From Chloroflexota bacterium (GTDB lineage Bacteria > Chloroflexota > Dehalococcoidia > Lucifugimonadales > UBA1127), in contig JAPONS010000108.1 of NCBI GenBank assembly GCA_026713825.1, positions 7,585 through 71,584 on the forward strand: DNA of 64,000 nt. Direction: 5' to 3'. The translations under genes and the position numbers were made by a program. This document shows positions 7,954 through 57,414 of this stretch, piece by piece. The stretch's first letter is position 1. Each line of letters begins with the position of its first letter. The notes beneath the pieces were generated by a model, which was given only the letters and a program-made list of their open reading frames with translations, searched no databases and had not been told where the DNA came from.

Positions 7954-8571
7954 ATGTACTTGATGCAAGAGATCCTGCAAGTTGCCAACGGTCGAAACAA
8001 AGAGGCGGTGAAGCGCCTCCAGTGGATCCATTCGCTGATGCAGCCCCAGCCCGGCTTTGTGCGCGCTCAGATTTGCCAGTACCTCGGCAATTCCATGCGC
8101 CACCTCATCCTGCGTATGTGGGACGACAGGGAATCCTTTGAAGCCTTCCGCGCTACCCCTGAGGGCGCCGGTTACCCCCAGAGCCGTCCCGCCGGCCTCT
8201 ACGAGGGCCAGCCCTGCGGACGCGACTGGCAGCTCCTCCAGGAGTCCAACGGCCTCGCCACCGGCAACTTCCTCATTCGCTCTGAATTCGACGTCGCCGG
8301 TGACCACTGGGACGACTACCTCACCATCCGCAAGGCCCAGGACCGCATCCACCGGCAGGCCGGCGGGTTCCAGTACGCCTGGAACTTCAAGGAGCTCGGT
8401 GAGGGCGACGGAGCGCTCCTCCTCGTCCGAAAGACCAGCCGCGAGGATCACATGGTCTACGTCGAGAGCCTGCTCAAGTCCCAGCTCCGAGACAGCAGCC
8501 CGCAGGGCATCTCCAAGCCCCGCGGTGACTACATGGAATACTACGATATCATCGACGAGGTCACGCCGTAG
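7954..8571 (+). CDS. two-domain ABM-like protein, paralog 2
   Basis: 205 aa, collinear with 7206..7817 (MYLMQEILQVANGRNKEAVKRLQWIHSLMQPQPGFVRAQICQYLGNS…). Confidence 0.5.
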   Translation: MYLMQEILQVANGRNKEAVKRLQWIHSLMQPQPGFVRAQICQYLGNSMRHLILRMWDDRESFEAFRATPEGAGYPQSRPAGLYEGQPCGRDWQLLQESNGLATGNFLIRSEFDVAGDHWDDYLTIRKAQDRIHRQAGGFQYAWNFKELGEGDGALLLVRKTSREDHMVYVESLLKSQLRDSSPQGISKPRGDYMEYYDIIDEVTP

Positions 8572-23941: not shown

Positions 23942-25825
<1,884 letters not shown>

Positions 25826-26040: not shown

Positions 26041-27467
26041 GGATAGCTGCTTGCCCATACTGCGAGGAGCCTTTATCCTACATCATAGAATGAATGTGCT
26101 ATCCGTAGAGCGTGAATGAAGCAGCAGAAGGCCCAGATCATCCAATTGCAGCCGACCGAGGAGCAGCGCGTCTACTTTGCCCGCGCCTCCGGTATTGCCC
26201 GCCTTGCCTTCAACTGGGCACTGGACTGGTGGAACGAGCAATACAAACTCCACAAGGAGGAGGGAGCGCCCAGGCCAAACCGAGTCAACACCTGGAAAGC
26301 CTGGTGCGCCCACAAGCAGGCTTGTAAAGATGAGCGTCCCTGGCTGTACGAGGTCTCGTCGGATGTGCCCAAGTGGGTGATCTATGAGTCGCTGCCCAGA
26401 GCGTTCGCCAACTGGTGGAATCCCAAGACCCGGCAAGGACCGCCCAATTTCAAGAGCAAGCGCACCGCCCGCCGGGTTTTTGTGGGACAGGACTCCTGCA
26501 AGCCCGCCAACTTCCGCCATCGCGGCATCCGGCTGGCGAAGTTGGGGTGGGTGCGCTGCCGCTCCCAACTGCGCTGGCCGGCGAGCCAGGTCAGGCGCGT
26601 CACCGTCTTTGAGCAAGCCGGCAAGTGGTATGCCTCCATCCTGTTTGAGGACCCGGACTACACCCCGCCCGTCCACGAGAACCAAGCGGGCGCGGTGGGC
26701 GTGGACCTGGGTTCCCGCAAGCTGGCCGTGGCGTACGACGGGGAATCCTTCCAGCAGTGGGAGAACCCCAAGGCCCTGGATGGCGCGCTGCGCCGGTTGC
26801 GCCGCTGGCAGCGGAGGGCCGCCCGCCGCGGGGTGCGCGACAGCAAGCGGCGGGTGCTGGAGGTCACCCGCCGCCTTCGGAAGGCCAACAGCCGCATCGC
26901 CCGGCTCCACAAGCGGGTGGCGGACATCCGCCGTTGGCACGGGCACAACGTCTCCAACGCCTTGACGCGGGACTACGCCGTCGTCGGGACGGAGGACCTC
27001 AATGTCAAGGGCATGATGCGTTCGGCTAAGGGAACGGTGGAGAATCCAGGCAAAAACGTCAAGGCAAAGTCGGGTTTGAATAGAAGTGTGGCCGACGCCG
27101 GCATGGGGGAGTTGCTGCGCCAGATTGACTACAAGGCGCACTGGCGCGGCGGGGAGCGCCGCCAGGTGGGGCGCTTCTTCCCCTCCTCCAGGACGTGCAG
27201 CGACTGCGGGTACAAGCACGACGGGCTGCAGGCCCGCGAGCATTGGGCTTGCCCCTTCTGCGGCGTCGTCCACGACCGGGACGAGAACGCCGCCGTTAAC
27301 ATCTACAGAGAAACGGTAGGGGGAAGCACTCCCGAACCGGCGGACTTCGGGCCGCGAACGCCCGTGGAGTCCATGGCCTCTGCTCAAGGTCAGCTACGGC
27401 TGCTCGAGTAAGCTGGGACAGTGAAGCGGGAACCATAACCGCGCGTTAGGGCGCCTTTCGCGTTAGG
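26041..27467 (+). mobile_element. putative tnpB-only IS200/IS605-family (IS1341-like) element; ends not determinable
   Basis: Contains only a TnpB ORF, with no tnpA. The 3' tail (…gacagtgaagcgggaacc…) resembles the region where omega/reRNA scaffolds lie in such elements. The inverted pair ggatagc (26041) / gctatcc (26098) upstream could belong to a left-end structure. The boundaries given are guesses. Confidence 0.3.
26116..27411 (+). CDS. tnpB: TnpB-family RNA-guided RuvC endonuclease (OrfB_IS605 / IS200-IS605 accessory protein type)
   Basis: 431 aa. N-terminal IQLQPTEEQRVYFARASGIARLAFNWALDWW (OrfB N-terminal HTH-like). RuvC-I GVDLGSRKLAV, RuvC-II VVGTEDLNVKGM, Zn finger CSDCGYKHD…WACPFCG, RuvC-III HDRDENAAVNI. 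All catalytic acidic residues appear present. Confidence 0.9.
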   Translation: MKQQKAQIIQLQPTEEQRVYFARASGIARLAFNWALDWWNEQYKLHKEEGAPRPNRVNTWKAWCAHKQACKDERPWLYEVSSDVPKWVIYESLPRAFANWWNPKTRQGPPNFKSKRTARRVFVGQDSCKPANFRHRGIRLAKLGWVRCRSQLRWPASQVRRVTVFEQAGKWYASILFEDPDYTPPVHENQAGAVGVDLGSRKLAVAYDGESFQQWENPKALDGALRRLRRWQRRAARRGVRDSKRRVLEVTRRLRKANSRIARLHKRVADIRRWHGHNVSNALTRDYAVVGTEDLNVKGMMRSAKGTVENPGKNVKAKSGLNRSVADAGMGELLRQIDYKAHWRGGERRQVGRFFPSSRTCSDCGYKHDGLQAREHWACPFCGVVHDRDENAAVNIYRETVGGSTPEPADFGPRTPVESMASAQGQLRLLE

Positions 27468-27912
27468 GGTGTCCCCGTACGCGCGGGGGTGCTTGGAGCA
27501 GCCTCCATCCACTCCAATTCCTTCATCTGGTGTCCCCGTACGCGCGGGGGTGCTTGGGAGTACATGTGGCGGCATATGCGGATGCTGACGGTGTCCCCGT
27601 ACGCGCGGGGGTGCTTGGACCCGCACCCCCTTCCCCCAGAACATCAAGACGGTGTCCCCGTACGCGCGGGGGTGCTTGGTAGTAGCAGGTCAGGTCGCGG
27701 TAGTCGGACGAGGTGTCCCCGTACGCGCGGGGGTGCTTGACGACCTACACGGAGAAGGCAGGGCGCCGCGCCGGTGTCCCCGTACGCGCGGGGGTGCTTG
27801 GGGAGAGAGGCATGACCACACAGGAGCAGACCCGGTCGCGGGGGTGCTTGTCTTCCGCGCTTGGCGCCCGTCAGTGGCAAAGCGGTGTCCCCGTACGCGC
27901 GGGGGTGCTTGG
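27468..27912 (+). CRISPR. CRISPR array, 8 repeats / 7 spacers, type I-E-like repeat geometry
   Basis: Repeat GGTGTCCCCGTACGCGCGGGGGTGCTTGG (29 nt) starts at 27468, 27529, 27590, 27651, 27712, 27773, 27834 and 27884. The period is exactly 61 nt and spacers are 32 nt. Repeat 7 carries an 11-nt internal deletion (GGT^CGCGGGGGTGCTTG). Repeat 5 ends in A and repeat 7 in T. The fold is stem CCCCGT/GCGGGG, tetraloop ACGC and an 8-nt 3' tail, the same architecture as the E. coli I-E repeat. All spacers are unique. Confidence 0.92.
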
Positions 27913-27973
27913 TGTTCAGGGGCAATAGAGGTGGGGTCCTGTACAGTAGGTCTTATACGTTGGAGGTAACAGA

Positions 27974-28306
27974 ATGGCCGGGCCAACAAAGCAAAGAGCC
28001 ATAGAGCTACTGCAAATATCTCTTGACGCCATACCAGGATTGAAAGACGTAAAGCACAATACGCCTGAAGTTGATCCATGGCGTAGGAACACCCGTGTCA
28101 CTATTCAGAACGTGTTTGAAGGATCCCAATCTCATGTTCGGGAGTTTACAAGAATCTGGCTAGGGGAAAATTACTCCGAAAGCGACTCCTTTTACCAGGA
28201 TCGGCACATAAAGAGACTGGAAGCATCAGCTTCCATACTCCAATCAATGATCAGTGAAATTGAAAACTTCTGGCCGGAAGACATTCAAGAAACCAACTCT
28301 CAGTAA
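27974..28306 (+). CDS. hypothetical 110-aa protein (helical, no recognisable family)
   Basis: RBS ggaggt 7 nt upstream. AT-richer codon usage than the flanks. Ends 24 nt before the TIR-like gene, so probably co-transcribed. Confidence 0.55.
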   Translation: MAGPTKQRAIELLQISLDAIPGLKDVKHNTPEVDPWRRNTRVTIQNVFEGSQSHVREFTRIWLGENYSESDSFYQDRHIKRLEASASILQSMISEIENFWPEDIQETNSQ

Positions 28307-28330
28307 GTCGCCAAGACAACTGAACTCTCC

Positions 28331-28774
28331 ATGGGACGGAAAGTCTTCCTCATTCACGGCCGCAATCACGGTACCAGAGACACCGTGGCGCGGTTCTTGG
28401 AGAAGCTGCAAATAAAGGTAGTCATTATGATGGAGCAGCCCAACCAGGGTCGGACTTTGATTGAAAAGCTTGAAGGCAATGCCGACACCGACTTCGCCAT
28501 AGCGCTCTTGACGCCCGACGACGAAGGGGGGCTGAAAGGCGGGGTGCAGAAGGCTCGCAGCAGGCAAAACGTAATACTTGAGTTGGGCTACTTCATGGGG
28601 CGATTAGGGAGAAACAGAGTGTGTGCCTTGGTCCAAGGTGACGTTGAGATACCAACAGATTACTACGGTGTCGTATACATAGACTTTGACGACTCAAACG
28701 CTTGGCAACAACAGCTCATAGGAGAACTCAAGGCTGCACGGTTCAGCATCGACGCCAACCGTGCCTTCACATAG
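28331..28774 (+). CDS. stand-alone TIR-like nucleotide-binding domain protein (COG4271 / CAP12-PycTIR-type TIR-like family)
   Basis: 147 aa. KVFLIHGRNHGTRDTVARFLEKL…EQPNQGRTLIEKLE…DFAIALLTPDD…SRQNVILELGYFMGRLGRNRVCAL…PTDYYGVVYIDFD follows the family pattern known from CBASS/Pycsar-type effectors, including the ELGYF Glu. Confidence 0.75.
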   Translation: MGRKVFLIHGRNHGTRDTVARFLEKLQIKVVIMMEQPNQGRTLIEKLEGNADTDFAIALLTPDDEGGLKGGVQKARSRQNVILELGYFMGRLGRNRVCALVQGDVEIPTDYYGVVYIDFDDSNAWQQQLIGELKAARFSIDANRAFT

Positions 28775-28791
28775 GACAAGGCTAAGCCCCC

Positions 28792-29958
28792 TCACGCCCC
28801 CGCCGACAACCCTTGCAGTGGAAACCCCTCCCGCCGCAGATCCTCGACGCTTGCTCTTGCGTAGTCCTGCACCCGCGCCGACACCTCCGGCGGCAGTTGC
28901 GCCTGCTCCGGGTCGTCGAGGCGATCTACGCCGTGGGTATGCGCAAAGGCGGGCGGGGCTGTGTCCGGCCACTCTTGGCCGAGCATGACGCCGTAGGCGC
29001 GGGTCCAGGCGCGCATTACTGCGCCGATGTCGTAGCCTCCACCCCCGAGCGCAAGCCAGCGCCCGGGTGATAGCCCGGCCAGTTCCCGGACCACCTGCGT
29101 GTACCCCTGCACCGTCAGGCGGAGGTGGGTGATGGGGTCCAGGACGTGCGTGTCTATGCCGAGCTGGGTAACCAGGACGTCCGGCTTGAAGGCTTGCACC
29201 ATTGGGGGCACCACCTCACGGAAGGCCCACAGGTAGGTCTCATCGTTCGTGTAGGGGAAGAGGGGGACGTTCACGGCGTAGCCGCGGCCCGCCCCTGTGC
29301 CTATCTCGTTGGTGAAGCCGGTGCCCGGGAAGAGGAACTCGCCGGACTCGTGGAAGGAGATGGTGAGCACCTGGTCTGTGTCGAAGAAGCCCACCTGGAC
29401 GCCGTCGCCGTGGTGACAGTCTATGTCCACGTAGGCGACGCGCGCCCCCGCCGCGACCATGTGCCTGATGGCGATGACCGGGTCGTCGAAGATGCAGAAG
29501 CCTGACGCGTGGCCGGGCATGGCGTGGTGCAGGCCGCCGGAGAAGTTCACTGCCGCCGAGCACCGGCCGCTCAGGAGTTCCTCCGCCGCCGTGAGCGACG
29601 CCCCCGTCGTCCAGAGGGCGGCGTCGTACATGCCCTGGTAGACGGGGTTGTCTCCCATGCCGCCCGCGGCGAAGTTGAAGAGGGCCGCCTCCTCCAGCCG
29701 CTCTCCGCGGCTTAGGGCCGCCACAGCCTCCACATACGCGGGCGAGTGGTAGGTGTGCACCTCCTCGACGCGGGCCTGCCGCGGCTCCATGAGCGACGCA
29801 TTGGCCAGCGTGAACGCTCCGAGCGCCTCCAGGAGCTCGTAGGTGTGGCGGAGGCGGTAGGGGCGGAAGACGTGGGTCTCGCTGAGGACGTGGCGCGTCA
29901 GCCGGTCGTGGTAGACGAAGGCTGCGGTGCGCGCGTCGTCGGGCGGGGGCAGGCTCAT
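28792..29958 (-). CDS. histone deacetylase-family enzyme (AcuC/acetoin-utilisation-like deacetylase)
   Basis: …GGLHHAMPGHASGFCIFDDPVIAI…YVDIDCHHGDGVQ…SFHESG… are the Zn-site and active-site motifs. Start set to the ATG at 29958 (MSLPPPDD…). The track start at 30114 would overlap the tRNA gene. Confidence 0.85.
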   Translation of the reverse strand: MSLPPPDDARTAAFVYHDRLTRHVLSETHVFRPYRLRHTYELLEALGAFTLANASLMEPRQARVEEVHTYHSPAYVEAVAALSRGERLEEAALFNFAAGGMGDNPVYQGMYDAALWTTGASLTAAEELLSGRCSAAVNFSGGLHHAMPGHASGFCIFDDPVIAIRHMVAAGARVAYVDIDCHHGDGVQVGFFDTDQVLTISFHESGEFLFPGTGFTNEIGTGAGRGYAVNVPLFPYTNDETYLWAFREVVPPMVQAFKPDVLVTQLGIDTHVLDPITHLRLTVQGYTQVVRELAGLSPGRWLALGGGGYDIGAVMRAWTRAYGVMLGQEWPDTAPPAFAHTHGVDRLDDPEQAQLPPEVSARVQDYARASVEDLRREGFPLQGLSAGA

Positions 29959-30072
29959 GGCGCGGAGGATACGCGGCCCGCCGACGTACGCGCAAGGGCG
30001 CCGCGTCAGTGGACGGTTGGGGTCAGGAGGGTGTATAGTACATGTTGACCCCTCACCACTGAGGGCTACCGT

Positions 30073-30147
30073 CGCGGGGTGGAGCAGCGGCAGCTCGTTG
30101 GGCTCATAACCCAAAGGTCGGAGGTTCGAATCCTCCCCCCGCTACCA
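30073..30147 (+). tRNA. tRNA-Met (CAT), initiator type
   Basis: Manual cloverleaf: acceptor CGCGGGG/CCCCGCT, D arm GAGC-AGCGGCA-GCTC, anticodon arm TTGGG-CTCATAA-CCCAA, variable AGGTC, T arm GGAGG-TTCGAAT-CCTCC, then A and encoded CCA. Initiator hallmarks are three G:C pairs closing the anticodon stem, A11:U24 and an unpaired 1:72 (C1/U72). Confidence 0.9.
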
Positions 30148-30217: not shown

Positions 30218-31369
30218 CTAGCCCCAAAGCTCTGCGCTTGCGATGCGGGCGCCCTCTGACATTGCCCTGAACTTCTCCCAGCACACCTTTGCGTGGCCGA
30301 CCCGCGAACCGATGCCGCAGTCCGTGCCGGCCATGAGGCTCTCCTTGCCGACGACGTCCGCGTAGCGCAGCAGCCGCTGGGCTACGAGCTGCGGGTGCTC
30401 GATGAAGTCGCTGGCATGGCCGATGACGCCGGGGATGAGAACCTTGCCGTCGGGCAGCTTGATGTCGCGCCATACCGCCCACTCGTGCTCGTGCGCGGGG
30501 TTGGAGGCCTCGATGGAGTAGCCGACGGACTTCACTTTCAGGATCAGGTCCGCGATGTCGGCCAGCGGAATGTCGTACATGTGCGGCCCCTTGTAGCTCC
30601 CCCAGCACGTGTGAAAGCGGACCTTCTCCTCAGGGATGTCGCCGATGGCGTGGTTCAAGGCCTCAATGCGGAGGTTGGCGAACTTCCTGTATTCCTCGAC
30701 GCTCATGCCGGGGTTCATTTGCCAGCCGTCGGGCAGGTCCGGGTCGTCGATCTGCAGCAGGAAGCCGGCGTCGACGATGGCTTTGTACTCCTCATGCAGC
30801 GCGTCGGCAAGCGCGAAGAGGAATGCCTCGTCCGAGGGGTAGTACTCGTTGGCGAGCCAGTGCTCGACGGTCCCGGGTGTGACGGCGGGCAGAAAGGCTT
30901 CCTCCGGCGTGTGGCCCTGCAGCCCGGCGTTGAAATTGTCAATGTCCGCCTGAATTCCCGCCTGTCCCGTGTAGGTGATGGGCCCGACGACGAAGAAGGA
31001 TGGGTTGGAGCCAGCGCCTGTGAAGCCCCCTCGCTGTGCGAAGTAGCCCGAGAACTCCTGCATGTCCCGACCGTTTATGCCGGGAGGCGCCGGGCCGTCC
31101 TTCGGCGTGCGCCGCTCAATGCCGCCCATGCGCTCGCCGATGTAGCTGGTGAACGTGACCTTGCTCACCTCACCGTCGTTGACGCTGTCGATGCCCGTCT
31201 CAATCTGCAGACCCACGTTCTCCGCGATGACAGAGCGGATCGTATCGGTCATCGCCGGCTCGTTCACCGGTTCTCCGCGGCTCTTGGCCACGACCATGTC
31301 AAGGAGCTCGCGCGGCCTTGGCAGGGTACCGGCGTGCATCGTTCGGATGTGGTCTGTGCTACGGATCAT
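30218..31369 (-). CDS. cobalamin-independent methionine-synthase-like (MetE C-terminal/UROD-fold, COG0620) protein, paralog 1
   Basis: Start at MIRSTDHIRTMHAGTLPRP with RBS gaggagg. …RFHTCWGSYKGPH…GYSIEASNPAHEHEW…AGTDCGIG… carries Zn-ligand-like His/Cys. 383 aa. Confidence 0.7.
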   Translation of the reverse strand: MIRSTDHIRTMHAGTLPRPRELLDMVVAKSRGEPVNEPAMTDTIRSVIAENVGLQIETGIDSVNDGEVSKVTFTSYIGERMGGIERRTPKDGPAPPGINGRDMQEFSGYFAQRGGFTGAGSNPSFFVVGPITYTGQAGIQADIDNFNAGLQGHTPEEAFLPAVTPGTVEHWLANEYYPSDEAFLFALADALHEEYKAIVDAGFLLQIDDPDLPDGWQMNPGMSVEEYRKFANLRIEALNHAIGDIPEEKVRFHTCWGSYKGPHMYDIPLADIADLILKVKSVGYSIEASNPAHEHEWAVWRDIKLPDGKVLIPGVIGHASDFIEHPQLVAQRLLRYADVVGKESLMAGTDCGIGSRVGHAKVCWEKFRAMSEGARIASAELWG

Positions 31370-31442
31370 GGCTCCTCCTCTATGGCGCAAATCCAGCGTC
31401 TACGCGGCTGGAAATGCCTGGCTGCCCTGCAGTGGCCCGGTC

Positions 31443-32594
31443 CTAGCCCCAGAGCTCCGCGCTTGCGATGCGGGCGCCCTCAGACATTGCCTTGAACTTC
31501 TCCCAGCACACCTTGGCATGGCCCACGCGGGCGCCGATGCCGCAGTCCGTGCCGGCCATGATGTTCTCCTTGCCCACGACGTCGGCGTAGCGCAGCAGCC
31601 GCTGCGCCACGAGCTGCGGGTGCTCGATGAAGTCACAGGCGTGGCCGATGACGCCGGGGATGAGCACCTTGCCGTCGGGCAGCTTCACGTCGCGCCACAC
31701 CGTCCACTCGTGCTCGTGCGCGGGGTTGGAGGCCTCGATGGAGTAGCCGACTGCCTTCACCTTCAGGATGAGGTCAACGATGTCCACCAAGGGGATGTCG
31801 TGCTTGTGGGGCCCCTTGTAGCTGCCCCAGCAGGTGTGGAAGCGGACTTTCTCCTCCGGGATGTCGCCGATGGCGTGGTTCAGCGCGTCTATCCGCAACT
31901 CGGCGAACTTCTTGTATTCCGGGACGGTCATGTCCGGGAACATCTGCCAGGCGTCGGGCAGGTCGGGATCGTCGATCTGGAGCAGGAAGCCCGCGTCGAC
32001 GATGGCCTTGTACTCCTCATGCAGGACGTCGGCGAGGGCGTAGAGGTAGGCCTCGTCCGTGGGGTAGTACTCGTTGGCGAGCCAGTGCTCGACGGTGCCG
32101 GGAGTAACCGCCGGCAGGAAGGTCTCCTCCGGCGAGTAGCCCTCTAGCGCCGCATTGAAGTTGTCGATGTCCGTCTGAATGGCGGCCTGACCCGTGTACG
32201 TGAGCGGCCCAACCACGAAGACCGAGGGGTTGGAACCGGCCCCGGTGAAACCGGGCTTGCCATCGAAGTAACCAGGGAAATCGATTTCGTCGCGCCCATT
32301 GACACCTGGAGGCGCAGGGCCATCCGCAGGCTTTCGTTGCTCTATTCCGCCCAGGCGCTCTCCGATGTAGTGGGTGAAGCTGAACTTGTGCACCTCGCCG
32401 TCGTTGATGCTGTCGATGCCGGTCTCGATCTGCAGGCCCACGTTCTCGCGGATGACGTCCCTGACCAGGCTGGTCAGAGCAGCCTCGTCCACAGGTTGGC
32501 CTATCATCTTGGAGAAGGTCATGTTGAAGAGCTCCTGCGGCCTGGGCAGGGTGCCTGCGTGCATAACGCGAATGCGGTCTGTGCTTCTGATCAT
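31443..32594 (-). CDS. MetE-like (COG0620) protein, paralog 2
   Basis: Start at MIRSTDRIRVMHAGTLPRP with RBS ggagg. Collinear with 30218..31369 at about four-fifths amino-acid identity by eye, with long identical nucleotide runs near the 3' ends. Confidence 0.7.
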   Translation of the reverse strand: MIRSTDRIRVMHAGTLPRPQELFNMTFSKMIGQPVDEAALTSLVRDVIRENVGLQIETGIDSINDGEVHKFSFTHYIGERLGGIEQRKPADGPAPPGVNGRDEIDFPGYFDGKPGFTGAGSNPSVFVVGPLTYTGQAAIQTDIDNFNAALEGYSPEETFLPAVTPGTVEHWLANEYYPTDEAYLYALADVLHEEYKAIVDAGFLLQIDDPDLPDAWQMFPDMTVPEYKKFAELRIDALNHAIGDIPEEKVRFHTCWGSYKGPHKHDIPLVDIVDLILKVKAVGYSIEASNPAHEHEWTVWRDVKLPDGKVLIPGVIGHACDFIEHPQLVAQRLLRYADVVGKENIMAGTDCGIGARVGHAKVCWEKFKAMSEGARIASAELWG

Positions 32595-32735
32595 GTTGTC
32601 CTCCGCAGTGGGCACAGGCCCACCTTTGGTGTATTCCCTGTGCCCCATGAAAGTACATCGGCGTAACTGCCGCCGCAAGCCCACACTGGGAATAGTGAGT
32701 ATCCGTATCAGAGCAACGCAGGCCGTCGCCCGCCC

Positions 32736-47069: not shown

Positions 47070-47453
47070 CTACGGCGATGAATCCGCGGCGGGCCTGCCC
47101 GTCGTGAGGAGGTATGCAGTGTAGAGGAGACCAAGGAGGGGGACGACGGCCAGTATGGCCGGAATTTCCCAGTCGCCCTTCGTTGATCCCGTTGCAATAG
47201 ACAGCGCATAGTAGCCGTCGGCCAGCGCAGTCGCCAGCAGCAACGTAGCGGCGGCGGCGAGGGCGGGCTTGCCAAGCGACGGCATGAACACGACCGCCAA
47301 CAGGCCGACAGCGCTCAGTGGGTGCAGGAGAGTCAGGAGCAATCGGGCAAATGTGTCATCGCCGTCGGCAAAGGAGCCGACCAGGGCCAGAAACGCCGCA
47401 AACAGGCCGTAGAGAACGGCGACGACCTGCATGGGGACAAGGAGCTTCTTCAT
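47070..47453 (-). CDS. hypothetical multi-span membrane protein
   Basis: Start at MKKLLVPMQVVAVLYGLFAAFLALVG… Four hydrophobic segments and no recognisable family. Confidence 0.4.
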   Translation of the reverse strand: MKKLLVPMQVVAVLYGLFAAFLALVGSFADGDDTFARLLLTLLHPLSAVGLLAVVFMPSLGKPALAAAATLLLATALADGYYALSIATGSTKGDWEIPAILAVVPLLGLLYTAYLLTTGRPAADSSP

Positions 47454-47495
47454 GGGGTGAGGATAGGCCCGCCGCGGCGCGAGGGTCAAGCTGCG

Positions 47496-47518
47496 GGGGC
47501 AACCACGAGGATTGCCCC
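47496..47518. repeat. REP-like hairpin (ggggcaacc…ttgcccc family, inverted copy)
   Basis: ggggcaaccacgaggattgcccc approximates the reverse complement of the unit at 5020 and 9897. Confidence 0.5.
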
Positions 47519-47539
47519 TACAATGGGTCCCGGGCCCCG

Positions 47540-48790
47540 CTACGGGTCAAAGCGGTAGACCACGGGCATGTCCGTGGCTTCCGTGACCGCTCCGCCCGGA
47601 TGCCGCCGCACCACCAGACGGCCCGTCCCGCAATCGCCGAACCCGTCGCAGGAGATCTCGCCGATGATGCCCCGGAAGCCGCTCACGCCCGTCAGCGCCT
47701 CCCGCAACGCGGCCCGGTCAATGTAGAGGTCGCCTTCAATGGTGACCGCGACGTTGTCAATGGCCCGCAGCAGCATCGTCGTGGCGTCGTAGGCGTGGGA
47801 GATAAAGACGTAGGTGGCGGCCTCGCCGTGCCTGGCCTGGTACGCGGCCTTGAGCTGCGCGCCGCTGACACCGGTGGCCTCGTTCACGTTGTCGTCGAAG
47901 TCCAGGTCGGGGCTGGAGAAGTAGACGCCCGCGGCCTCCGGCAGGGAGAGCAGCTGGGTGGTCAGCAGCGCCTCGCCGCCGATGACGGTCACGCCCTGCA
48001 GGCCGGGGACGTCCGCCAACTGCGTAAGGACCGTCGCGCCATCCTCCCCGTGGACGGGCAGGAAGAGGCCGTCCGGCCCAGCCTCAGCCAGCTCCGTCAG
48101 CGCGCCCGTCATGTCGGGGGCCCCTCGGGTGATCTTCATAACGACCGTCGCGCCGCCGCTCTCGGCAAAGGCCGCGGCGAAGGCTTCGGCCAGGCCGCGG
48201 GTGTAGGGGTCGCCGTCGTGCAGGACGCCGACGTTGCGGAGTCCCAGCTCCTCCCAGGCGAACCGGGCCACGGCCAAGCCCTGGTACAGATCGTTGCTGG
48301 CGGTGCGGTAGTAGCCCGGCATGTTGCTGTCGGAGGCGTTGCCCTGCAGGTCCGACGTCAGCGACGGCGCGGTGTTGGACGGCGACAGCATGACGAGGTT
48401 GCCCCGGCTGATGACCGGCAGCGCGGCGACTGCGGCGAACGAGCACGAGGTGCCGATGACGCCCACCACCTTGGGGTCGGCGGCGACGGACTCTGCGGCG
48501 TGGATGGCGGCGTCGGTCTCGCACGCCGAGTCCAACCCCTCGCCCATCGCGACCGCATGGCCGCGGATGGGGCCGTAGTCGGCGATGGCCATCTCGACGG
48601 TGCGCTCCACGTGGGCGCCGGAGCCGAGGGTGACGGCGGTGATGGTGCGGATGTGGATATCGTCGCCGGCCTCCACCTTCACCGCGCCCAGGAGGCCCTC
48701 GTCGAAGGGGCTGCCCCCGCAGGCCGCGCTCAGCGCCAGCAGCGCGGCGGCCAGCGCGAGGGCCAGGGTCCGGCGGAGGTGACGCTTCAT
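47540..48790 (-). CDS. ABC transporter substrate-binding lipoprotein (Leu/Ile/Val-binding, LivJ-like family)
   Basis: Start at MKRHLRRTLALALAAALLALSAAC (lipobox). …PKVVGVIGTSCSFAAVAALPVISRGNLVMLSPSNTAP… No permease or ATPase genes are adjacent. Confidence 0.75.
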   Translation of the reverse strand: MKRHLRRTLALALAAALLALSAACGGSPFDEGLLGAVKVEAGDDIHIRTITAVTLGSGAHVERTVEMAIADYGPIRGHAVAMGEGLDSACETDAAIHAAESVAADPKVVGVIGTSCSFAAVAALPVISRGNLVMLSPSNTAPSLTSDLQGNASDSNMPGYYRTASNDLYQGLAVARFAWEELGLRNVGVLHDGDPYTRGLAEAFAAAFAESGGATVVMKITRGAPDMTGALTELAEAGPDGLFLPVHGEDGATVLTQLADVPGLQGVTVIGGEALLTTQLLSLPEAAGVYFSSPDLDFDDNVNEATGVSGAQLKAAYQARHGEAATYVFISHAYDATTMLLRAIDNVAVTIEGDLYIDRAALREALTGVSGFRGIIGEISCDGFGDCGTGRLVVRRHPGGAVTEATDMPVVYRFDP

Positions 48791-48871
48791 CGGGAGTGCG
48801 GTCTGCATGCTGTCCGTCCTTCTTTCCTCAGTATAGCGCGCCATTGGGGGCCGCCGGCGGTCTGGTTCGCC

Positions 48872-50056
48872 CTACATCGCCTCCAGCAGCGCACCGGCAG
48901 CGGCGGCGAGGACCACCACGAGCCACGGGGGCGTCTTCCAGAAGGCCAGCAACACGAACGCGGCAGCCCCAAGCGCAAAGTCCTCGGGCGCATCAATGGC
49001 GCTGGTCCAGACGGGGTCGTACAGGGCCGCCAGGAGGATGCCCACAACTGCGGCGTTGACGCCCATAAGGCCTCGCCGCACCGGCGTGAAGCCGCGCAGC
49101 CGCTCCCAGAAGGGCAGCACACCCCAGACCAGCAGGAACGACGGCAGGAAGATGGCGGCCAATGCCAGCAACCCGCCCAGCCACCAGGGGTCGAGGACGC
49201 CCATGACCGTCCCCAAGTACGCAGAGAAGGTGAACAGCGGCCCCGGCACAGCCTGCGCGGCGCCATAGCCCGCGAGGAACTCATCCTTGGTGACCAAGCC
49301 GGAAGGGACAACCTCCGCCTCCAACAGCGGCAGCACCACATGCCCGCCGCCGAACACCAGCGAGCCCGAGCGGTAGAAGCTGTCGGCAACGGCAAGCGGC
49401 TGGTTGTCGACAGCCCGTGCGACGAAAGGAAGCGCCACGAGCGCGACGATGAACAACGCCAGCAACAGCGCCCCGATCCCGGCGCCGGTGCGCCGTCCTG
49501 CGTCGCCGGCAGACTGCAATTCGGCGGGCCGCAGCAGGATGAGGCCGAGCGCGGCTCCGCCCGCGATGACGAGCACCTGCACGGCAACGCCGCCGGTCAG
49601 CAGCAGCGCAGCCGCCGCAACCACGGCGATGGTGATGCGCGTCCGGTCCGGCGTCAGGGTCCGGCCCATGCCCCACAGCGCGAAGGCCACGACGGCCACC
49701 GCAGCGATCTTGAGGCCGTCGAGCCAGCCGCCGGCGTCGCCGCCGAACTCGTGCACACCGTAGGCGAAGGCCGCCAGGGCCGCGGCGGACGGCAGCGTGA
49801 ACCCCAGCCACGCGAGGAATCCGCCAAGATACCCCGCGCGCCCCGTCCCGATCGCGATGCCGAGCTGGCTGCTGGCCGGGCCGGGGAGGAACTGGCAGAG
49901 CGCGACGAGCTCGGCAAAGCGCTCCTCTGAGAGCCACTTTCGACGCTCAACGTACTCGTCATGGAAGTAGCCGATGTGCGCCACCGGCCCGCCAAAAGAC
50001 GTGAGCCCAAGGCGCAGCGCGACAAGCAGGACTTCGAGCAATCGGGAGATTCCCAT
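48872..50056 (-). CDS. chrA: chromate transporter (CHR family)
   Basis: 394 aa. …LGLTSFGGPVAHIGYFHDEYVERRKWLSEERFAELVALCQFLPGPASSQ… with an internal duplication (…LVFGGGHVVLPLL…). Confidence 0.88.
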   Translation of the reverse strand: MGISRLLEVLLVALRLGLTSFGGPVAHIGYFHDEYVERRKWLSEERFAELVALCQFLPGPASSQLGIAIGTGRAGYLGGFLAWLGFTLPSAAALAAFAYGVHEFGGDAGGWLDGLKIAAVAVVAFALWGMGRTLTPDRTRITIAVVAAAALLLTGGVAVQVLVIAGGAALGLILLRPAELQSAGDAGRRTGAGIGALLLALFIVALVALPFVARAVDNQPLAVADSFYRSGSLVFGGGHVVLPLLEAEVVPSGLVTKDEFLAGYGAAQAVPGPLFTFSAYLGTVMGVLDPWWLGGLLALAAIFLPSFLLVWGVLPFWERLRGFTPVRRGLMGVNAAVVGILLAALYDPVWTSAIDAPEDFALGAAAFVLLAFWKTPPWLVVVLAAAAGALLEAM

Positions 50057-50151
50057 TACGGGCCTATTGTCGCTGACGGAATGAGCGGTGTCAGCAGTGA
50101 GTGGTGGGGTATAATAGCGCGTTGCGGTGGTGGGGAGGCGAAGGGAGACGC

Positions 50152-52620
50152 ATGGGAAGCAGACTGACCGGCGAAGGGCCGGCGAAGGTGTACGCGGCGG
50201 CGGAAAAGTGGGTGGACGCCGCCCTGCGCACCGACGACTCGCTGTTCACGCCAGGAAAGCCGGTGTGGACACTGGACGTGCTGGGGGAGGTGCGGGAGAA
50301 CTTCTTAGATCGACCGAATGAAGGTAGTGGGAGCTTCATGAATAGGCTGCAGGCGCAGCTTGACGGCTGCTCGCCTAAGGCTTATCAGCTTGTGGGTGAA
50401 GTGATGTACGTCCATTTCCTCATCACCGACAAGGGCATGAACCGAAACACCAAGGTGAACTACATTAACCAAGTGCTTGGCTGGGCTTCTCCTCCCTTCA
50501 CCATGCCCCAAGAGGCTGCTGATGGATTCGGCATCGGCCTTATGGGTACTGGACAGAGCTTTCACAATCACCGCCCGTACCACATCGGCTTCATTCTGGA
50601 ATTTGTAGAACACTGGAAGCAACAGCCAGCAAATGAGCAGCAATCGTTGCTGGATAACCCGTGGGCGTTTAAGGACTTCCTTTGGCAGACACCGCTCACC
50701 AGCGAATTGCTGAAGAATGACAAGAACAAGCCCACATTACAGAGACTAGCACTGTTGCATCTCATATTCCCGGACACATTCGAGGCAATCGTATCTACAG
50801 CGCACAGGCAGAAGATATTCTCTGCGTTCGCCGGACTGGCTGACGAACCCGACCAGGACATCGACCGGCGGTTACAGCAGCTTCGCCGACACTTTGAGGC
50901 TAAGTATGGATCGCCCAATCACCTTTTTTATCGCGAGGCGATTAAGAGCCAGTGGGACGGGACCGAACCACATAACCCCGACCCTAGCCCTTGGGACGTA
51001 ATTGTCAAGCGGGCAAAGGCATACGTAACCACTGGCAATTTAGAGAAGGATGAGATCAATTACAAATTAGATATCGCGCGGAAACTAGCGGAAGCACGGG
51101 AGGCAGTCCTCACCGATGGGGGTGACTGGGCAGGGCTAGTTAAAAGAGGAATTGTTGGCAACCTTGTCTTCAATATCCAACTATCCAGGTTCCGCACTTG
51201 GGTTGACAGCTTACCGCAGCAAGCCCTCAATGCGCTGAAGACACTCTGGCGGCAAGATGATTCGCCCATTGAGGAACGCATTCGTAAATTCAGTGCTTTA
51301 CTTCCCAAAGCAAATGTACCTGACGCCGAACATCCCATTGGCATCACTGGCTCTGGCACCCGTGCAAACGTGATCTCAGTCCTTCTTATGGCGTTAGGCG
51401 CAGAAGACCACCCGCCCTTCCGCATGGGCGTCTTTGACAAAGCCTATGAATTGACGGGGTTCGCGAAGCCTGGAACTTCCAGCGATGAGGTCGAACTATA
51501 CACCCATGCCATGAAGTTCCTGAACAAGTTTATTGAAGAAGCTGGTGAGCGCGGTCTCCCGATACACAACCTCCTTGAAGCACAGTCGATTCTTTGGATG
51601 ATTGGAGATTGGGAAGAAGATGAAGACAACGGCAAAGGTGGTGGGCTTGAGAATAGCCCCACCCTCGCAAGTCTCGCCACTGATCTCTACTTACACCCTG
51701 ACTTCCTGAGGGACATCGTGCTGCTCCTAGAAGAGAAGAAACAGATCATCTTCCAGGGCCCGCCAGGGACAGGAAAGACCTTTCTTGCGCGTGAGCTTGC
51801 CAAGCATCTGGCTGACGGTGATGACGGGCGGGTGACGCTAGTGCAATTTCACCCGTCGTATGCGTATGAGGACTTCGTGCAGGGTTTCCGTCCCGACCCC
51901 GACGGCAGGGGTGGGTTCGCGCTGCGGGATGGGCCGCTGCTGCGGGCGGCTCGCGCTGCCCAACAGGACTTGGACGCAGCTAGAGCAGCAGGGCAGGACC
52001 CCGATAGCGCCAGCCGCCACTACCTCATCATTGATGAGATCAACCGAGGTAACCTCGGCAAGGTGTTCGGGGAACTGTACTTCCTGTTGGAGTACAGAGA
52101 CGAGGCCATGCGGCTCCAATACGCCGACACCGACTTCTCTCTGCCGCCCAACCTCTACATCATCGGCACCATGAACACTGCCGACCGTTCAATCGCGCTG
52201 GTGGATCTGGCGCTCCGGCGGCGGTTCTACTTCATGGACTTTCACCCGGATGAGGAGCCCATCAAGGGTGTCCTGCGCCGCTGGCTAGCGGCGAACGCGC
52301 CGGAGATGGAGTGGGCAGCGGACGTGGTCAACGCGGCGAACGAGAAGCTGAAGGACGACCGCCACGCGGCCATCGGGCCAAGCTACTTCATGCGGCCTGG
52401 CCTGGACGACGCGGCTGTGGAACGCATCTGGAAGCACAGCGTCCTGCCGTATCTGACCGAACGCCTCTATGAGAACGCCGAACGGCTCGCCGAGTTTGAC
52501 CTGAACAAGCTGCGGGCTGAGGTCGAGATCAGCAACGGCAACGCAGGCGGGAGCGGCCCGGCGGAAGCTGAGGAAGGCCCTGGTGATGCAGATGATGACG
52601 GTGGCGAGTCCAGTGCGTGA
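50152..52620 (+). CDS. mcrB: McrB-like AAA+ (GTPase-type) restriction subunit with a long N-terminal region
   Basis: ATG at 50152 follows RBS aagggag. The C-terminal module has FQGPPGTGKTFLA (Walker A), YLIIDEINRGNLGKVFGELYFLLEYR (Walker B and McrB signature), IIGTMNTADRS and LRRRF. The first roughly 500 aa are unassigned and partly AT-richer. Confidence 0.8.
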   Translation: MGSRLTGEGPAKVYAAAEKWVDAALRTDDSLFTPGKPVWTLDVLGEVRENFLDRPNEGSGSFMNRLQAQLDGCSPKAYQLVGEVMYVHFLITDKGMNRNTKVNYINQVLGWASPPFTMPQEAADGFGIGLMGTGQSFHNHRPYHIGFILEFVEHWKQQPANEQQSLLDNPWAFKDFLWQTPLTSELLKNDKNKPTLQRLALLHLIFPDTFEAIVSTAHRQKIFSAFAGLADEPDQDIDRRLQQLRRHFEAKYGSPNHLFYREAIKSQWDGTEPHNPDPSPWDVIVKRAKAYVTTGNLEKDEINYKLDIARKLAEAREAVLTDGGDWAGLVKRGIVGNLVFNIQLSRFRTWVDSLPQQALNALKTLWRQDDSPIEERIRKFSALLPKANVPDAEHPIGITGSGTRANVISVLLMALGAEDHPPFRMGVFDKAYELTGFAKPGTSSDEVELYTHAMKFLNKFIEEAGERGLPIHNLLEAQSILWMIGDWEEDEDNGKGGGLENSPTLASLATDLYLHPDFLRDIVLLLEEKKQIIFQGPPGTGKTFLARELAKHLADGDDGRVTLVQFHPSYAYEDFVQGFRPDPDGRGGFALRDGPLLRAARAAQQDLDAARAAGQDPDSASRHYLIIDEINRGNLGKVFGELYFLLEYRDEAMRLQYADTDFSLPPNLYIIGTMNTADRSIALVDLALRRRFYFMDFHPDEEPIKGVLRRWLAANAPEMEWAADVVNAANEKLKDDRHAAIGPSYFMRPGLDDAAVERIWKHSVLPYLTERLYENAERLAEFDLNKLRAEVEISNGNAGGSGPAEAEEGPGDADDDGGESSA

Positions 52621-53845
52621 GCTTAACCTGACCGAGTACAAGCCAAGCGAGGCAACGCCACTGACCGCGCCAGAGCTTGCATCGCTCTTGTCGGCCCGCA
52701 AGCAGCTCGGTGTGTCTGTAGAGCCTGCGCAGAATCATCTGGGTGCGTATGTCGTCACGCCCGCCTCCACCGTCGGCGCCGTCGAAATCGACGGCCTCTC
52801 CGTCGTCATCAAGCCCAAGATCACCATGCAACAGGTGCTGTCTCTCGCCCTCTATGCCATGGATGCGGACAGTCGCTTTCATCTGCACCCCTTTGACTTT
52901 GCGGAGGAGGACGCGCTGCCGGACCTGCTGGCGCATGCGCTGGCACAGGCGGCGCAGCGGGCCTTCGCGCAGGGACTGCTGCACGGCTACCGGGCGGAAG
53001 AGGAATCGCTGTACGGCGTGCGGGGCCGCATCCGGTTTGACGACCAAGTGCGCCGCCGGTTCGGCCGCGCCCTGCCGATAGAGGCACGGTACGACGACTT
53101 CACAGATGACATCCTGGAGAACCGGCTGGTGAAGGCGGCGGCGGGCCAGCTGGCTATGATGCGGCTGCGCTCCCCGGCAGCGCGGCGAGGACTGGGATGG
53201 ATTGCCGGAACGCTCGCCAATGTCTCGCCCGTGGAGTATCCGCTCAACAACGTGCCGGAGGTGCGGTTCGACCGGCTGAACGAGCACTACCGGCAGGTGG
53301 TGACGCTGGCACGGCTGGTGCTGCGGCACACCGCCTACCAGTCGAGCCGGGGCGCGGTTCGGGCTATTGGCTTCTTGTTTGACATGAACGATGTCTTTCA
53401 GCGATTCGTGACGCGCGCGCTGAGAGGGAAGCTCCAGTTGTCCGAGCGTGCCTTCCCATCCGATAAGAAACTGCCCCAAAAGGTGACGCTGGACACGAGT
53501 GGACAACTGAACCTCTTGCCAGATCTGTCATGGTGGCAGGACGGTAAGTGCGTCTTTGTCGGAGACGCCAAGTACAAGCGCATCCTTGACGAGCGCGTTC
53601 CTAACGCTGATCTCTATCAACTTCTGGCCTACGCTACTGCCCTGAATCTTCCAAACGGGTTGCTCATCTATGCGGAGAGTGAAGCAAATGTTGCCTCTCA
53701 TACCGTCCGCTACGCCAACAAACAACTGGAGGTCACAGCGCTAGATCTCAATGGCAACCTAGACGATGTTCTAGAGCGAGTTGGGTATCTTGCTAACAGG
53801 GTATGCACACTTTCCATTTCAGGAAGCGTATCAGTCAGCATGTGA
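52583..53845 (+). CDS. mcrC: McrC-like PD-(D/E)xK nuclease subunit
   Basis: …VGAVEIDGLSVVIKPKI… (McrC N-terminal pattern) and …LLPDLSWWQDGKCVFVGDAKYK…LYQLLAYA… (D…D/E-x-K nuclease core). Overlaps the mcrB 3' end. The start is ambiguous among GTG 52583, ATG 52586 and ATG 52595. Confidence 0.8.
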   Translation: MMQMMTVASPVRELNLTEYKPSEATPLTAPELASLLSARKQLGVSVEPAQNHLGAYVVTPASTVGAVEIDGLSVVIKPKITMQQVLSLALYAMDADSRFHLHPFDFAEEDALPDLLAHALAQAAQRAFAQGLLHGYRAEEESLYGVRGRIRFDDQVRRRFGRALPIEARYDDFTDDILENRLVKAAAGQLAMMRLRSPAARRGLGWIAGTLANVSPVEYPLNNVPEVRFDRLNEHYRQVVTLARLVLRHTAYQSSRGAVRAIGFLFDMNDVFQRFVTRALRGKLQLSERAFPSDKKLPQKVTLDTSGQLNLLPDLSWWQDGKCVFVGDAKYKRILDERVPNADLYQLLAYATALNLPNGLLIYAESEANVASHTVRYANKQLEVTALDLNGNLDDVLERVGYLANRVCTLSISGSVSVSM

Positions 53846-54368: not shown

Positions 54369-55727
54369 ATGACCAACGGCCTGCCTCTGCTCAACAAGCT
54401 GCTCTACACCTCCGACATGATCGGCGGGCAGGCGGTGGCGCAGACGCGCAACCTGTGGCTGCTGTTCTTCCTCGCGCCGCCGCGGGGCGAGGGCGATGCC
54501 GCCGTCACAGGCCTGTCGCTTGGCCCGATCGACATCGACGCGCGCGTACTGGTCGGGGCGGTGCTGACGGCGGGCCGGCTCATCGAGGCGTTCGACGACC
54601 CCATCATCGGCTGGTGGAGCGACCGCACCAGGAGCCGTTGGGGCCGGCGCCTGCCCTTCGTGGTGTTCTCGACGCCGTTCTGGGCCATCTTCTTCATGCT
54701 GCTCTGGTTCTCGCCCGTGGAGGGCGCGAGCTTCGTCAACGCCCTCTGGGTCTTCGTCATTTTGGAGCTGTTCTTCCTCAGCAACACCATGTCCATTGGC
54801 CCGTACGAGTCGCTGCTGCCGGAGGTGGCGAGGAGCCACCGGGACCGGATGAGCATCGTTGCGATGCAGTTCTACTTCGGCGTGCTGGGCGCGGTGCTGG
54901 GGCTGGTGCTGAGCGGCGTTGTGCAGGACACGTGGGGGTTCCAGGTCATGGGCGTATTGGTGGGCGCGCTGGGGCTTGGCTTTCGCTTCCTCGGCGTCGG
55001 CGGCGTCTGGCGGCACGCTCCGCGCGACACGCCGCCCGCGCAGATGCCGCTCAAGGGCGCCTTCCTCGCGACGCTGGCCAACAAGCAGTTCCTGTACTTC
55101 CTGCCCACCTTCGTGCTGTACCAGCTCTCGACGACGATGACGCTGGGGTGGATGCCATTCTTCGTCTCGGCCATCCTCGGCGCGGAGAATGAGGGCACGA
55201 TGACGTCGGCGCTGACGGGCACGGCGCTGGTGGGGATGATGGTGGCGGTGTTCGCCATGTGGAAGCTGAGCCATACGAAGGGCAAGCAGTGGGTCTACTC
55301 GTTATGCCTGCTGGGCACCGCCGTCATCCTGCCCTTCATGTTCTTCGTGGGGTTCGTGCCGGGGGTGCCGATACTGGCGCAGGGGATCGTCGTCGCCTTC
55401 CTCGTCGGGCTGCCGATGGGCGGCGTGAACCTCATGCCGCGGGCCATCACCGCCGACATCACCGACTACGACGAGATCCGCACCGGCATGCGCCGGGAGG
55501 CGATGTTCTTCACGACGCAGAACCTCTTCGAGAAGGTGGGTTCGTCGTTCTCCGCGCTGTTGCTCGCGCTCATCCTGCTGCTGGGCGAGACGGCGGACGA
55601 CCCGCTGGGCATCCGCCTGCTGGGGCCGGTGGCGGGCGCCATCGCGTTCATCGGCTACTGGGTGTTCCGGGGATACCGGCTGCCGAGCACCGTCACGCCG
55701 GAGAGCGTGCGGGAGGCGGGGTTGTAG
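54369..55727 (+). CDS. MFS transporter (GPH glycoside/pentoside/hexuronide:cation symporter-like)
   Basis: 452 aa with about 12 hydrophobic spans. …AFDDPIIGWWSDRTRSRWGRRLPF… is the GPH-family signature loop. Confidence 0.75.
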   Translation: MTNGLPLLNKLLYTSDMIGGQAVAQTRNLWLLFFLAPPRGEGDAAVTGLSLGPIDIDARVLVGAVLTAGRLIEAFDDPIIGWWSDRTRSRWGRRLPFVVFSTPFWAIFFMLLWFSPVEGASFVNALWVFVILELFFLSNTMSIGPYESLLPEVARSHRDRMSIVAMQFYFGVLGAVLGLVLSGVVQDTWGFQVMGVLVGALGLGFRFLGVGGVWRHAPRDTPPAQMPLKGAFLATLANKQFLYFLPTFVLYQLSTTMTLGWMPFFVSAILGAENEGTMTSALTGTALVGMMVAVFAMWKLSHTKGKQWVYSLCLLGTAVILPFMFFVGFVPGVPILAQGIVVAFLVGLPMGGVNLMPRAITADITDYDEIRTGMRREAMFFTTQNLFEKVGSSFSALLLALILLLGETADDPLGIRLLGPVAGAIAFIGYWVFRGYRLPSTVTPESVREAGL

Positions 55728-55738
55728 GGGTTAACGTC

Positions 55739-56410: not shown

Positions 56411-56510
56411 CCGCAGTTTCCTTCTTTTCGAGACCTGCAGGACACCTTTTACTCGCCGGTCATTAGCCAAAGCAAGGCCTCAAGCCTGAGCTGCCAAATC
56501 AACTCCCATT

Positions 56511-56540
56511 AGAAAAAGGGAGGGGCACAAGGCCCCTCCT
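56511..56540 (-). terminator. rho-independent terminator between the two island genes
   Basis: The minus strand reads ggaggggc-cttgt-gcccctcc followed by cttttt. Confidence 0.65.
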
Positions 56541-56641
56541 AATAGAGTGTGCTTCGTTAGCTATCTGCCCCCGAGGCTGCCTGCTGCCAATGGGTGACGC
56601 TAAAGAGCGTGCAGGAGGCGGGCTGTAAGGGTGTTCATTCT

Positions 56642-57337: not shown

Positions 57338-57414
57338 TCCCACTCCTCAGCGTATTGAGCAGAATGCACCCCTCCAACACGAGGCACATTCCGCTCAACT
57401 AGTCAGTCACCCCC

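Follow-up and report, generated by a model that had tools for sequence, protein, structure and literature searches.

PDC-S35 is one of the 145 'phage defence candidates' (PDC) listed by Payne et al. (bioRxiv 10.1101/2024.01.29.577857; PADLOC-DB v2), where candidates were chosen for their 'guilt by embedding' within BREX, DISARM, type I restriction–modification (R-M) and Hachiman systems. No characterisation of this family was found in the literature, and a recent survey of TIR signalling systems set stand-alone TIR proteins aside. The gene considered here belongs to this family and is found in a Chloroflexota bacterium present in sponge metagenomes, on a 64,000-nucleotide (nt) stretch of contig JAPONS010000108.1; this full stretch is called the window, and all positions are numbered within it unless another contig is named. 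The ancestral gene occupies 27974..28774 on the + strand and encodes a four-helix N-terminal domain (the head), a linker of some 15-20 residues and a TIR domain, with a read-through product of 266 amino acids (aa). A premature TAA codon at 28304..28306 divides it into two open reading frames (ORFs), ORF1 (27974-28306, 110 aa) and ORF2 (28331-28774, 147 aa). The locus is a disrupted member of a catalogued single-gene candidate family, and the nonsense mutation is probably a recent loss of function in a sensor–TIR gene of the abortive-infection type.

The window gene and PDC-S35 have the same domain order and length as 1519 homologues; PDC-S35 is a single protein, whereas the frame in the window is cut by the TAA. 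The host system that recurs in the loci surveyed for this analysis is type III R-M, in contrast to the BREX, DISARM, type I R-M and Hachiman systems of Payne et al. ORF2 shares the PF10137 TIR subfamily with Cap12/TIR-STING of the cyclic oligonucleotide-based antiphage signalling system (CBASS; 7un8, 9lmq) and with PycTIR of the pyrimidine cyclase system for antiphage resistance (Pycsar; 8jsj), and an RxNVxxExG motif including the Glu is common to ORF2, Cap12 and PycTIR. TIR-STING and PycTIR are switched on by oligomerisation. Cap12 and PycTIR are also the solved chains nearest to ORF2 by sequence (E 2e-10 with the family profile), and sensor-driven oligomerisation that switches on a nicotinamide adenine dinucleotide hydrolase (NADase) is probably common to them and the family. 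The window gene differs from both in its sensor, an N-terminal four-helix bundle instead of a STING or cyclic nucleoside monophosphate (cNMP)-binding domain, in having no cyclase partner and in falling far short of the Cap12 equivalog cut-offs.

Two further systems offer partial likenesses. SpbK of Bacillus subtilis (PMC12847820) is reported to become active as an NADase once its TIR domains are drawn together by the phage portal protein YonE. This single-gene abortive-infection protein joins a non-TIR part to a TIR NADase, and it may serve as the best working model for the action of head, linker and TIR, although no sequence kinship was detected beyond the TIR fold and no SpbK chain is among the PDB sequence or fold matches. 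As summarised by Payne et al., the PrrC protein of EcoprrI, a type Ic R-M locus, is kept inactive by its R-M partners until these are inhibited by Stp, an anti-restriction peptide of phage T4. The gene of this abortive-infection effector lies inside an R-M operon, as the family gene does after a type III methyltransferase gene (mod) in 22 of 80 loci surveyed from GTDB species genomes. PrrC is an ABC-ATPase anticodon nuclease rather than a TIR protein and its host R-M is of type I rather than type III; moreover, the window copy and most family members are not next to R-M genes. A PrrC-like backup or guard role, suggested by the type III R-M embedding, is offered as a hypothesis only.

ORF1 and ORF2 are co-oriented, lie 24 nt apart and share one reading frame. 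Single-frame translation of 27914-28780 gives ...EDIQETNSQ–stop–VAKTTELSMGRKVFLIHG..., in which the one TAA is followed by eight in-frame sense codons (VAKTTELS, 28307..28330) that are the remainder of the inter-domain linker and now read as 'intergenic'. In the 264-position PADLOC model PDLC05005, ORF1 corresponds to positions 3-100 (E 6.6e-7) and ORF2 to positions 119-262 (E 1.4e-63), collinear and in the same frame, and the pair together matches nearly the whole PDC-S35 model; the family definition calls for one polypeptide of about 230-280 aa, whereas the TAA gives 110 + 147 codons. The read-through sequence of both ORFs was used as query in a homologue search and retrieved the 1519 homologues. 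Apart from ORF2 of the window itself, the best 120 of these are single proteins covering 94-100% of the query, with lengths of 258-364 aa and nearly all of 262-290 aa. The nearest homologue, P0001 (80% identical), has ETNSQQTAKTTELPMGRKVF where the window has ETNSQ–stop–VAKTTELSMGRKVF, and codon alignment places CAA (Gln), in its metagenome contig L003, opposite the TAA. These comparisons show that 27974-28774 is one PDC-S35-family gene, in which the stop arose by a single C-to-T change in a Gln codon of the linker. Gene callers see a 110-aa and a 147-aa ORF because CAA became TAA. The stop is the sole lesion: neither a second stop nor a frameshift is present, and the residues invariant in the family are kept.

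The AlphaFold2 (AF2) model of an intact homologue (predicted local distance difference test, pLDDT, 87) consists of a helical N-domain (residues 6-99), a linker (105-118) with pLDDT <50 and a Rossmann-like TIR domain (121-265). The stop corresponds to residue 111 of this protein and thus falls within a linker predicted to be disordered. Since the predicted template modelling score (pTM) is only 0.55 although both domains are confident, no fixed packing of head against TIR is predicted. For ORF1 alone, the AF2 model is an up-down four-helix bundle (pLDDT 90.6, pTM 0.82) with helices at 6-18/20-24, 33-47, 52-60 and 71-99, after which the first part of the linker follows. ORF1 keeps the family-invariant residues L23, W36 and E95 as well as the near-invariant K6, R38, F48, F58, S91, M92 and W100. 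It has no Pfam or NCBIfam match, including none to a cNMP-binding Pfam family, and the head resembles neither STING, SAVED nor cNMP-binding domains. Fold searches with ORF1 returned only generic four-helix bundles in the PDB (FAT/GIT domains, best E 0.13) and nothing specific among the viral structures of BFVD (best E 0.26).

A hidden Markov model search assigns ORF2 to PF10137 (CAP12-PCTIR_TIR; E 1.9e-37, 128.3 bits against a cut-off of 24.7), over profile positions 1-118 of 119, so that its TIR domain is complete. All five PDC-S35 models match it as well, with E from 1e-63 to 3e-36. The Glu of its ELGYF motif (codon GAG, 28580..28582; E84 of ORF2, E203 of the read-through product) aligns with the FEFG Glu of Cap12 and PycTIR, is invariant in one family alignment and at least 90% conserved in another, and is presumed to be catalytic. 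By fold, ORF2 is nearest to the TIR domain of TIR-STING (9lmq, 7un8; E 3e-6), and the TIR domains of SARM1 and SPARTA come next. It is 96% identical to the TIR half of P0140, an intact protein from the related contig L084, and its start Met is also found in intact relatives. From such kinship, the TIR domain of PDC-S35 would be expected to hydrolyse NAD+. The score against TIR_2 (17.1 bits) lies below the cut-off of 28, and Thoeris is indicated neither by a PF08937 match, nor by a PADLOC Thoeris match, nor by an adjoining effector gene.

The two parts of the gene differ in their translation signals and stand out in composition. ORF1 begins 7 nt after a Shine-Dalgarno sequence, read as GGAGG at 27962..27966, and dnaK and other clear genes of the window have sites of this kind. 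No Shine-Dalgarno-like motif is read upstream of the ATG of ORF2 at 28331; a survey of host genes gave a mixed picture, so this counts as weak evidence only. A promoter and terminator scan of the locus was uninformative. The GC content is 0.499 for 27913-28790 versus 0.644 for the window, a value that only 1.4% of equal-sized windows reach or undercut, and the drop begins directly after the last repeat of a CRISPR (clustered regularly interspaced short palindromic repeats) array, which ends at 27912. Third-position GC is 0.46 in ORF1 and 0.65 in ORF2, well below the 0.89 of dnaK, which marks the split gene as compositionally foreign. On these points, the preliminary description of the locus was accurate: it had recorded the composition drop, the two co-oriented ORFs 24 nt apart, the helical but unassigned nature of ORF1, and the TIR-like character of ORF2 with its retained Glu. 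Its interpretation as a two-gene cassette does not survive the common frame, the single TAA and the collinearity with single proteins of 262-290 aa.

The closest intact relatives share the genomic setting. P0001, a protein of 265 aa, is encoded on L003 within a syntenic block of dnaK, a tnpB gene, a few CRISPR repeats, the gene itself and the start of a histone deacetylase (HDAC)-family gene, at 81-89% DNA identity to the window. L084 is nearer, with the same gene order, flanks that are 93-94% identical and the intact 266-aa P0140. Two short contigs, one from an NCBI assembly and one from an ENA assembly (L001, L002), show 99.95-100% identity to the window and have the split as well, and contigs from four separate sponge metagenome runs span the TAA with zero differences. 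Hence, the stop appears fixed in the strain-level population, as far as contigs show. Stop recoding or read-through as a design was considered and rejected; TAA also ends tnpB here, other broken copies of the gene are frameshifts, and no recoding signal is seen at the locus.

Relative to L003, dN/dS (the ratio of nonsynonymous to synonymous substitution rates) is 0.22 over the gene as a whole; the head (0.35) exceeds the TIR part (0.14), and dnaK and tnpB give 0.08 and 0.19 for comparison. A relative-rate count with two outgroups gives 11 replacements specific to the window and 8 specific to P0001, and there is no rate acceleration in the window lineage. If decay is neutral and about 15% of the changes within 800 nt are disabling, the absence of further lesions implies roughly <~0.025 substitutions per site since the mutation. 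As the branch to L003 has a dS of ~0.5, the age of the mutation would, as a rough figure, be less than about a tenth of that branch. Either the mutation is young, or both halves are still under selection.

The fused form is general. The linkage between homologues of the 110-aa ORF and TIR genes was surveyed in the 80 loci, with P0001 used to detect the head; many of these loci come from sponge-associated metagenome-assembled genomes of Dehalococcoidia, Binatia, Caldilineaceae, Nitrospira, Gammaproteobacteria, Spirochaetia, Acidobacteriota and others. Where a head is detectable, head and TIR are encoded in one ORF in 48 of 49 loci, the exception (L059) being a frameshift, and in the other surveyed loci the frame that contains the TIR domain stays open for 258 codons or more. 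None of the 80 has a head gene of its own ahead of a complete TIR gene, or a 147-aa stand-alone TIR. A profile search of 1.84 billion representatives turned up short head-only entries. In both that were checked (L085, L086), a full-length gene on a long-read contig is frameshifted in the linker, and the TIR frame lacks a start ahead of its first strand; they represent either pseudogenes or errors of assembly, not a recurrent two-gene design. All three of these other disrupted copies are frameshifts (L059 6001-6785; L085 2501-3303; L086 2501-3315), and the contig depth is 33x for L085 and 4x for L086. A two-gene pair, of either the toxin–antitoxin or the two-component kind, is thus at variance with the survey and with both nearest relatives, in which the gene is fused. 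This also bears on two suggestions of the preliminary description. That an N-terminal sensor has been split off holds in so far as ORF1 is the domain fused to TIR in homologues, but the separation is a strain-private nonsense codon. An uncharacterised two-component abortive-infection module is not supported, as the split is private to the strain and the family fused elsewhere.

By analogy with its relatives, the intact protein would be a one-protein abortive-infection device. Its variable helical head would sense infection, through either a phage protein or the condition of a restriction enzyme associated with it. As in TIR-STING, PycTIR and SpbK, the tethered TIR domains would thereupon cluster and form a composite active site around the conserved Glu, and the assembled TIR domains would then hydrolyse NAD+ and stop the infected cell. 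From the window allele, the head would still be made, from its good ribosome-binding site, while the TIR half would depend entirely on re-initiation 24 nt downstream. With the tether gone, sensing would no longer drive TIR assembly and head and effector would be uncoupled; the window allele is for this reason most likely a loss of function.

Several points weigh against such a loss. PDC systems are candidates only, and both the NADase activity and the abortive-infection role are carried over from relatives, just as the loss of function itself is something we infer. For two domains that fold independently, the linker is the only site at which a break could be tolerated, and the stop falls there. 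After 8 codons, a complete TIR domain begins with a native ATG; no second lesion has followed, and the split allele is the sole one seen in every sample. All of these features fit a tolerated or functional split equally well. In addition, contigs hide minority variants, so that a low-frequency CAA allele is possible, and a search for RNA-seq data found one candidate run, in which the locus is not covered.

The alternative that best survives, although it is unlikely, is a functional fission, in which head and free TIR act in trans as two polypeptides. The head would be made from its own ribosome-binding site and the TIR by re-initiation at the ancestral Met (ATG 28331), and the two would serve as sensor or inhibitor and effector, or as a toxin–antitoxin-like pair. 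If true, a two-gene sensor/effector or toxin–antitoxin-like system would have arisen from a single-gene one by one point mutation in the linker. The position of the stop in a disordered linker and the complete TIR that starts at a native Met 24 nt downstream are what such a fission would need, the conserved residues are kept with neither further lesions nor rate acceleration, and four runs and three assemblies contain the split allele only. However, the lack of extra lesions shows only that the mutation is young, and the split is private to one strain-level lineage while the gene is fused in both nearest relatives and in all but one of the loci with a detectable head. ORF2 also has no Shine-Dalgarno site, and AF2 gives no confident packing of head and TIR, hence no evident interface. 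In the other split copies (L059, L085, L086), no complete TIR ORF survives the frameshift, and they are therefore attributed to decay or assembly error.

Less probable still is selection on the head alone, as a free four-helix decoy or regulator of a restriction enzyme elsewhere, with the TIR half silent. ORF1 does keep its Shine-Dalgarno site, its start and its conserved residues, and the link of the family to type III R-M suggests a protein partner for the head. Yet a conserved head gene standing alone did not turn up, as the short head-only entries examined are frameshifted full-length genes, and in the window the TIR half is as well preserved as the head.

The preliminary description had placed the TIR protein among CBASS and Pycsar effectors. 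An orphan effector of this kind, in which the TIR awaits a cyclase signal from elsewhere and ORF1 is its separated ligand sensor, has very little to recommend it and was rejected. The TIR does belong to the Pfam family named for Cap12 and Pycsar effectors, and PADLOC gives weak matches to CBASS and PycTIR effectors, which are confined to the TIR part (for PycTIR, positions 177-267 of 288, E 1.5e-12). The NCBIfam Cap12 equivalog models, again matched in the TIR part only, reach 49.8 and 42.1 bits versus cut-offs of 450, and the plain four-helix head is unlike the STING, SAVED or cNMP-binding sensors of these systems. No CD-NTase or PycC cyclase gene adjoins the locus, where the neighbours are TnpB, the CRISPR array and HDAC, although not every ORF of the window was scanned. 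The conserved neighbours in the 80 loci likewise include no cyclase family, the partners being type III mod/res and MntA/HepT, and PADLOC files PDC-S35 as a single-gene candidate. Finally, a sequencing or assembly error in a gene that is really intact has next to no probability left and was rejected: one base makes the whole difference, and frame errors do affect data of this kind, as the long-read-derived L085 and L086 illustrate, but a substitution is not a typical assembly error, and the same TAA is present in four metagenome runs, the NCBI contig and the ENA contig.

A defence role of the family is independently supported by its embedding in type III R-M systems. Clustering of the neighbourhoods of the 80 species loci shows that the 22 genes mentioned above are located directly downstream of, and co-oriented with, a type III methyltransferase of up to ~1000 aa (PF01555; PADLOC MTase_III E 5.9e-147). 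In 18 of the 80 loci, a type III restriction subunit (res) of ~1000 aa follows (PF04851, PADLOC REase_III), and an MntA/HepT toxin–antitoxin pair often lies between the family gene and res. At ~15 loci, the end of the mod ORF coincides with the first base of the start codon of the family gene, which suggests that the two form one operon with translational coupling. Examples of the embedded arrangement, among the loci L004-L082, are L006 (3359-9697) and L022 (4280-10297). The copies in the window, L003 and L084, like most family members, are 'solo' and lie outside R-M systems.

The head is the more variable part of the protein. The window and L084 share 93-94% nucleotide identity on both flanks of the gene, but the segment 28010..28342, which comprises the N-domain and linker, has no nucleotide similarity to L084 in blastn and alignment, and identity returns precisely where the TIR domain begins (HGRNHG). 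The counterpart of the exchanged segment in L084 lies at about 8040-8369. As a consequence, the heads of the window protein and P0140 are 40% identical, compared with 96% for the TIR halves. Because L003, which is more distant than L084, has the window-type head, the exchange probably took place in the L084 lineage. In the family at large, divergence is ~2x as fast in the head as in the TIR domain.

The head also occurs with other partners. A head-only profile finds 1436 proteins at E <=0.001, and in nearly all of the best 150 matches the head is N-terminal and the C-terminal partner variable. It is fused to a TIR of the PF13676/PF01582 type in P0174 and P0266, to a PNP_UDP_1 phosphorylase domain in P0270 and to an AbiJ_NTD4 domain in P0187. 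In P0150, P0191 and P0223, there are two matches to the head profile and the PF10137 TIR is shifted by ~125 residues towards the C-terminus, which is read as a duplicated head. Such an arrangement is the behaviour expected of a recognition, specificity or regulatory module carried on interchangeable effectors.

Upstream, the gene is bordered by the CRISPR array (27468..27912, +), the trailer end of which points towards the TIR gene, and by a TnpB/Cas12u4-like gene directly upstream of the array (26116..27411, +; 431 aa). The array has 29-nt repeats with a 61-nt period, 7 full and one truncated (about 27835-27850), and no cas genes are seen near it. The TnpB-like protein contains the Pfam domains OrfB_IS605 and TNB and matches PADLOC Cas12u4 over nearly the whole model (E 2.5e-85). 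Its gene ends 56 nt ahead of the first repeat. The pair of tnpB and array is syntenic in three genomes at 86-93% identity (window 26116-27912; L003 2273-3770; L084 6198-7900), and the 55 nt from the tnpB stop to the first repeat are ~100% conserved, and 13 nt among them show 85% complementarity to the core of the repeat. The pair could represent a fixed IS605-type TnpB that adjoins a type I-E-like array; alternatively, the protein could be a V-U4-like miniature effector and make use of the array. The arrays of the window (27468-27912), L084 (7550-7900) and L003 (3625-3770), with 8, about 7 and 3 repeats, are built on one 29-nt repeat but have no spacer in common, which indicates that spacers have turned over since the genomes diverged. 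In the metagenome run X2, the same repeat is flanked by other spacers. The repeat next to the TIR gene, at the trailer end, is degenerate in L084 and L003.

The description of the surroundings as a typical defence island is only weakly borne out: the CRISPR array, the HDAC gene and a tRNA gene 1.3 kb away are present as stated, but apart from the array, the TnpB/Cas12u4-like gene and a distant McrBC system, the neighbours (GrpE, DnaK, HDAC and MetE-like genes) are housekeeping. A search for further defence genes near the TIR gene turned up McrBC alone, a restriction system 21 kb away (50101-53845), which comprises a McrB-like AAA_5 protein of 839 aa and McrC (PF10117, E 7.7e-55); the ORF before it (47318-49930, 870 aa) has no Pfam or PADLOC match. 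Upstream of tnpB lies dnaK (23942-25825), along with grpE. Downstream of ORF2, the HDAC-family gene is located at 28792-30114 on the minus strand, and its longest ORF (440 aa, TTG start) runs into the tRNA-Met gene (30073-30147); because the orthologue in L084 is annotated with 388 aa, translation probably begins at an internal Met, near MSLPPPDD. Two tandem paralogues on the minus strand (30218-31390, 31443-32684) have ~82% DNA identity, and their counterpart in L084, where three genes of similar size stand in tandem at this position, shows a faint Meth_synt_2 (MetE-like) match. The stretch at about 55700-57350 has the lowest GC content of the window (~48%), and its minus-strand ORFs 55739-56470 and 56642-57343 have no Pfam or PADLOC match.

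Taken as a whole, the disrupted gene sits in a small hotspot of variation, next to a CRISPR array, in the genome of a sponge-associated Chloroflexota bacterium. What appeared to be a novel two-gene TIR cassette is a matter of correction, and it should be annotated as a disrupted gene and not as a new system. For PDC-S35, the family-level facts are of use: the insertion into type III R-M loci across many phyla, the exchangeable head and the alternative effectors joined to it. The presence of intact and broken alleles at one locus in closely related sponge symbionts provides a ready-made comparison set.

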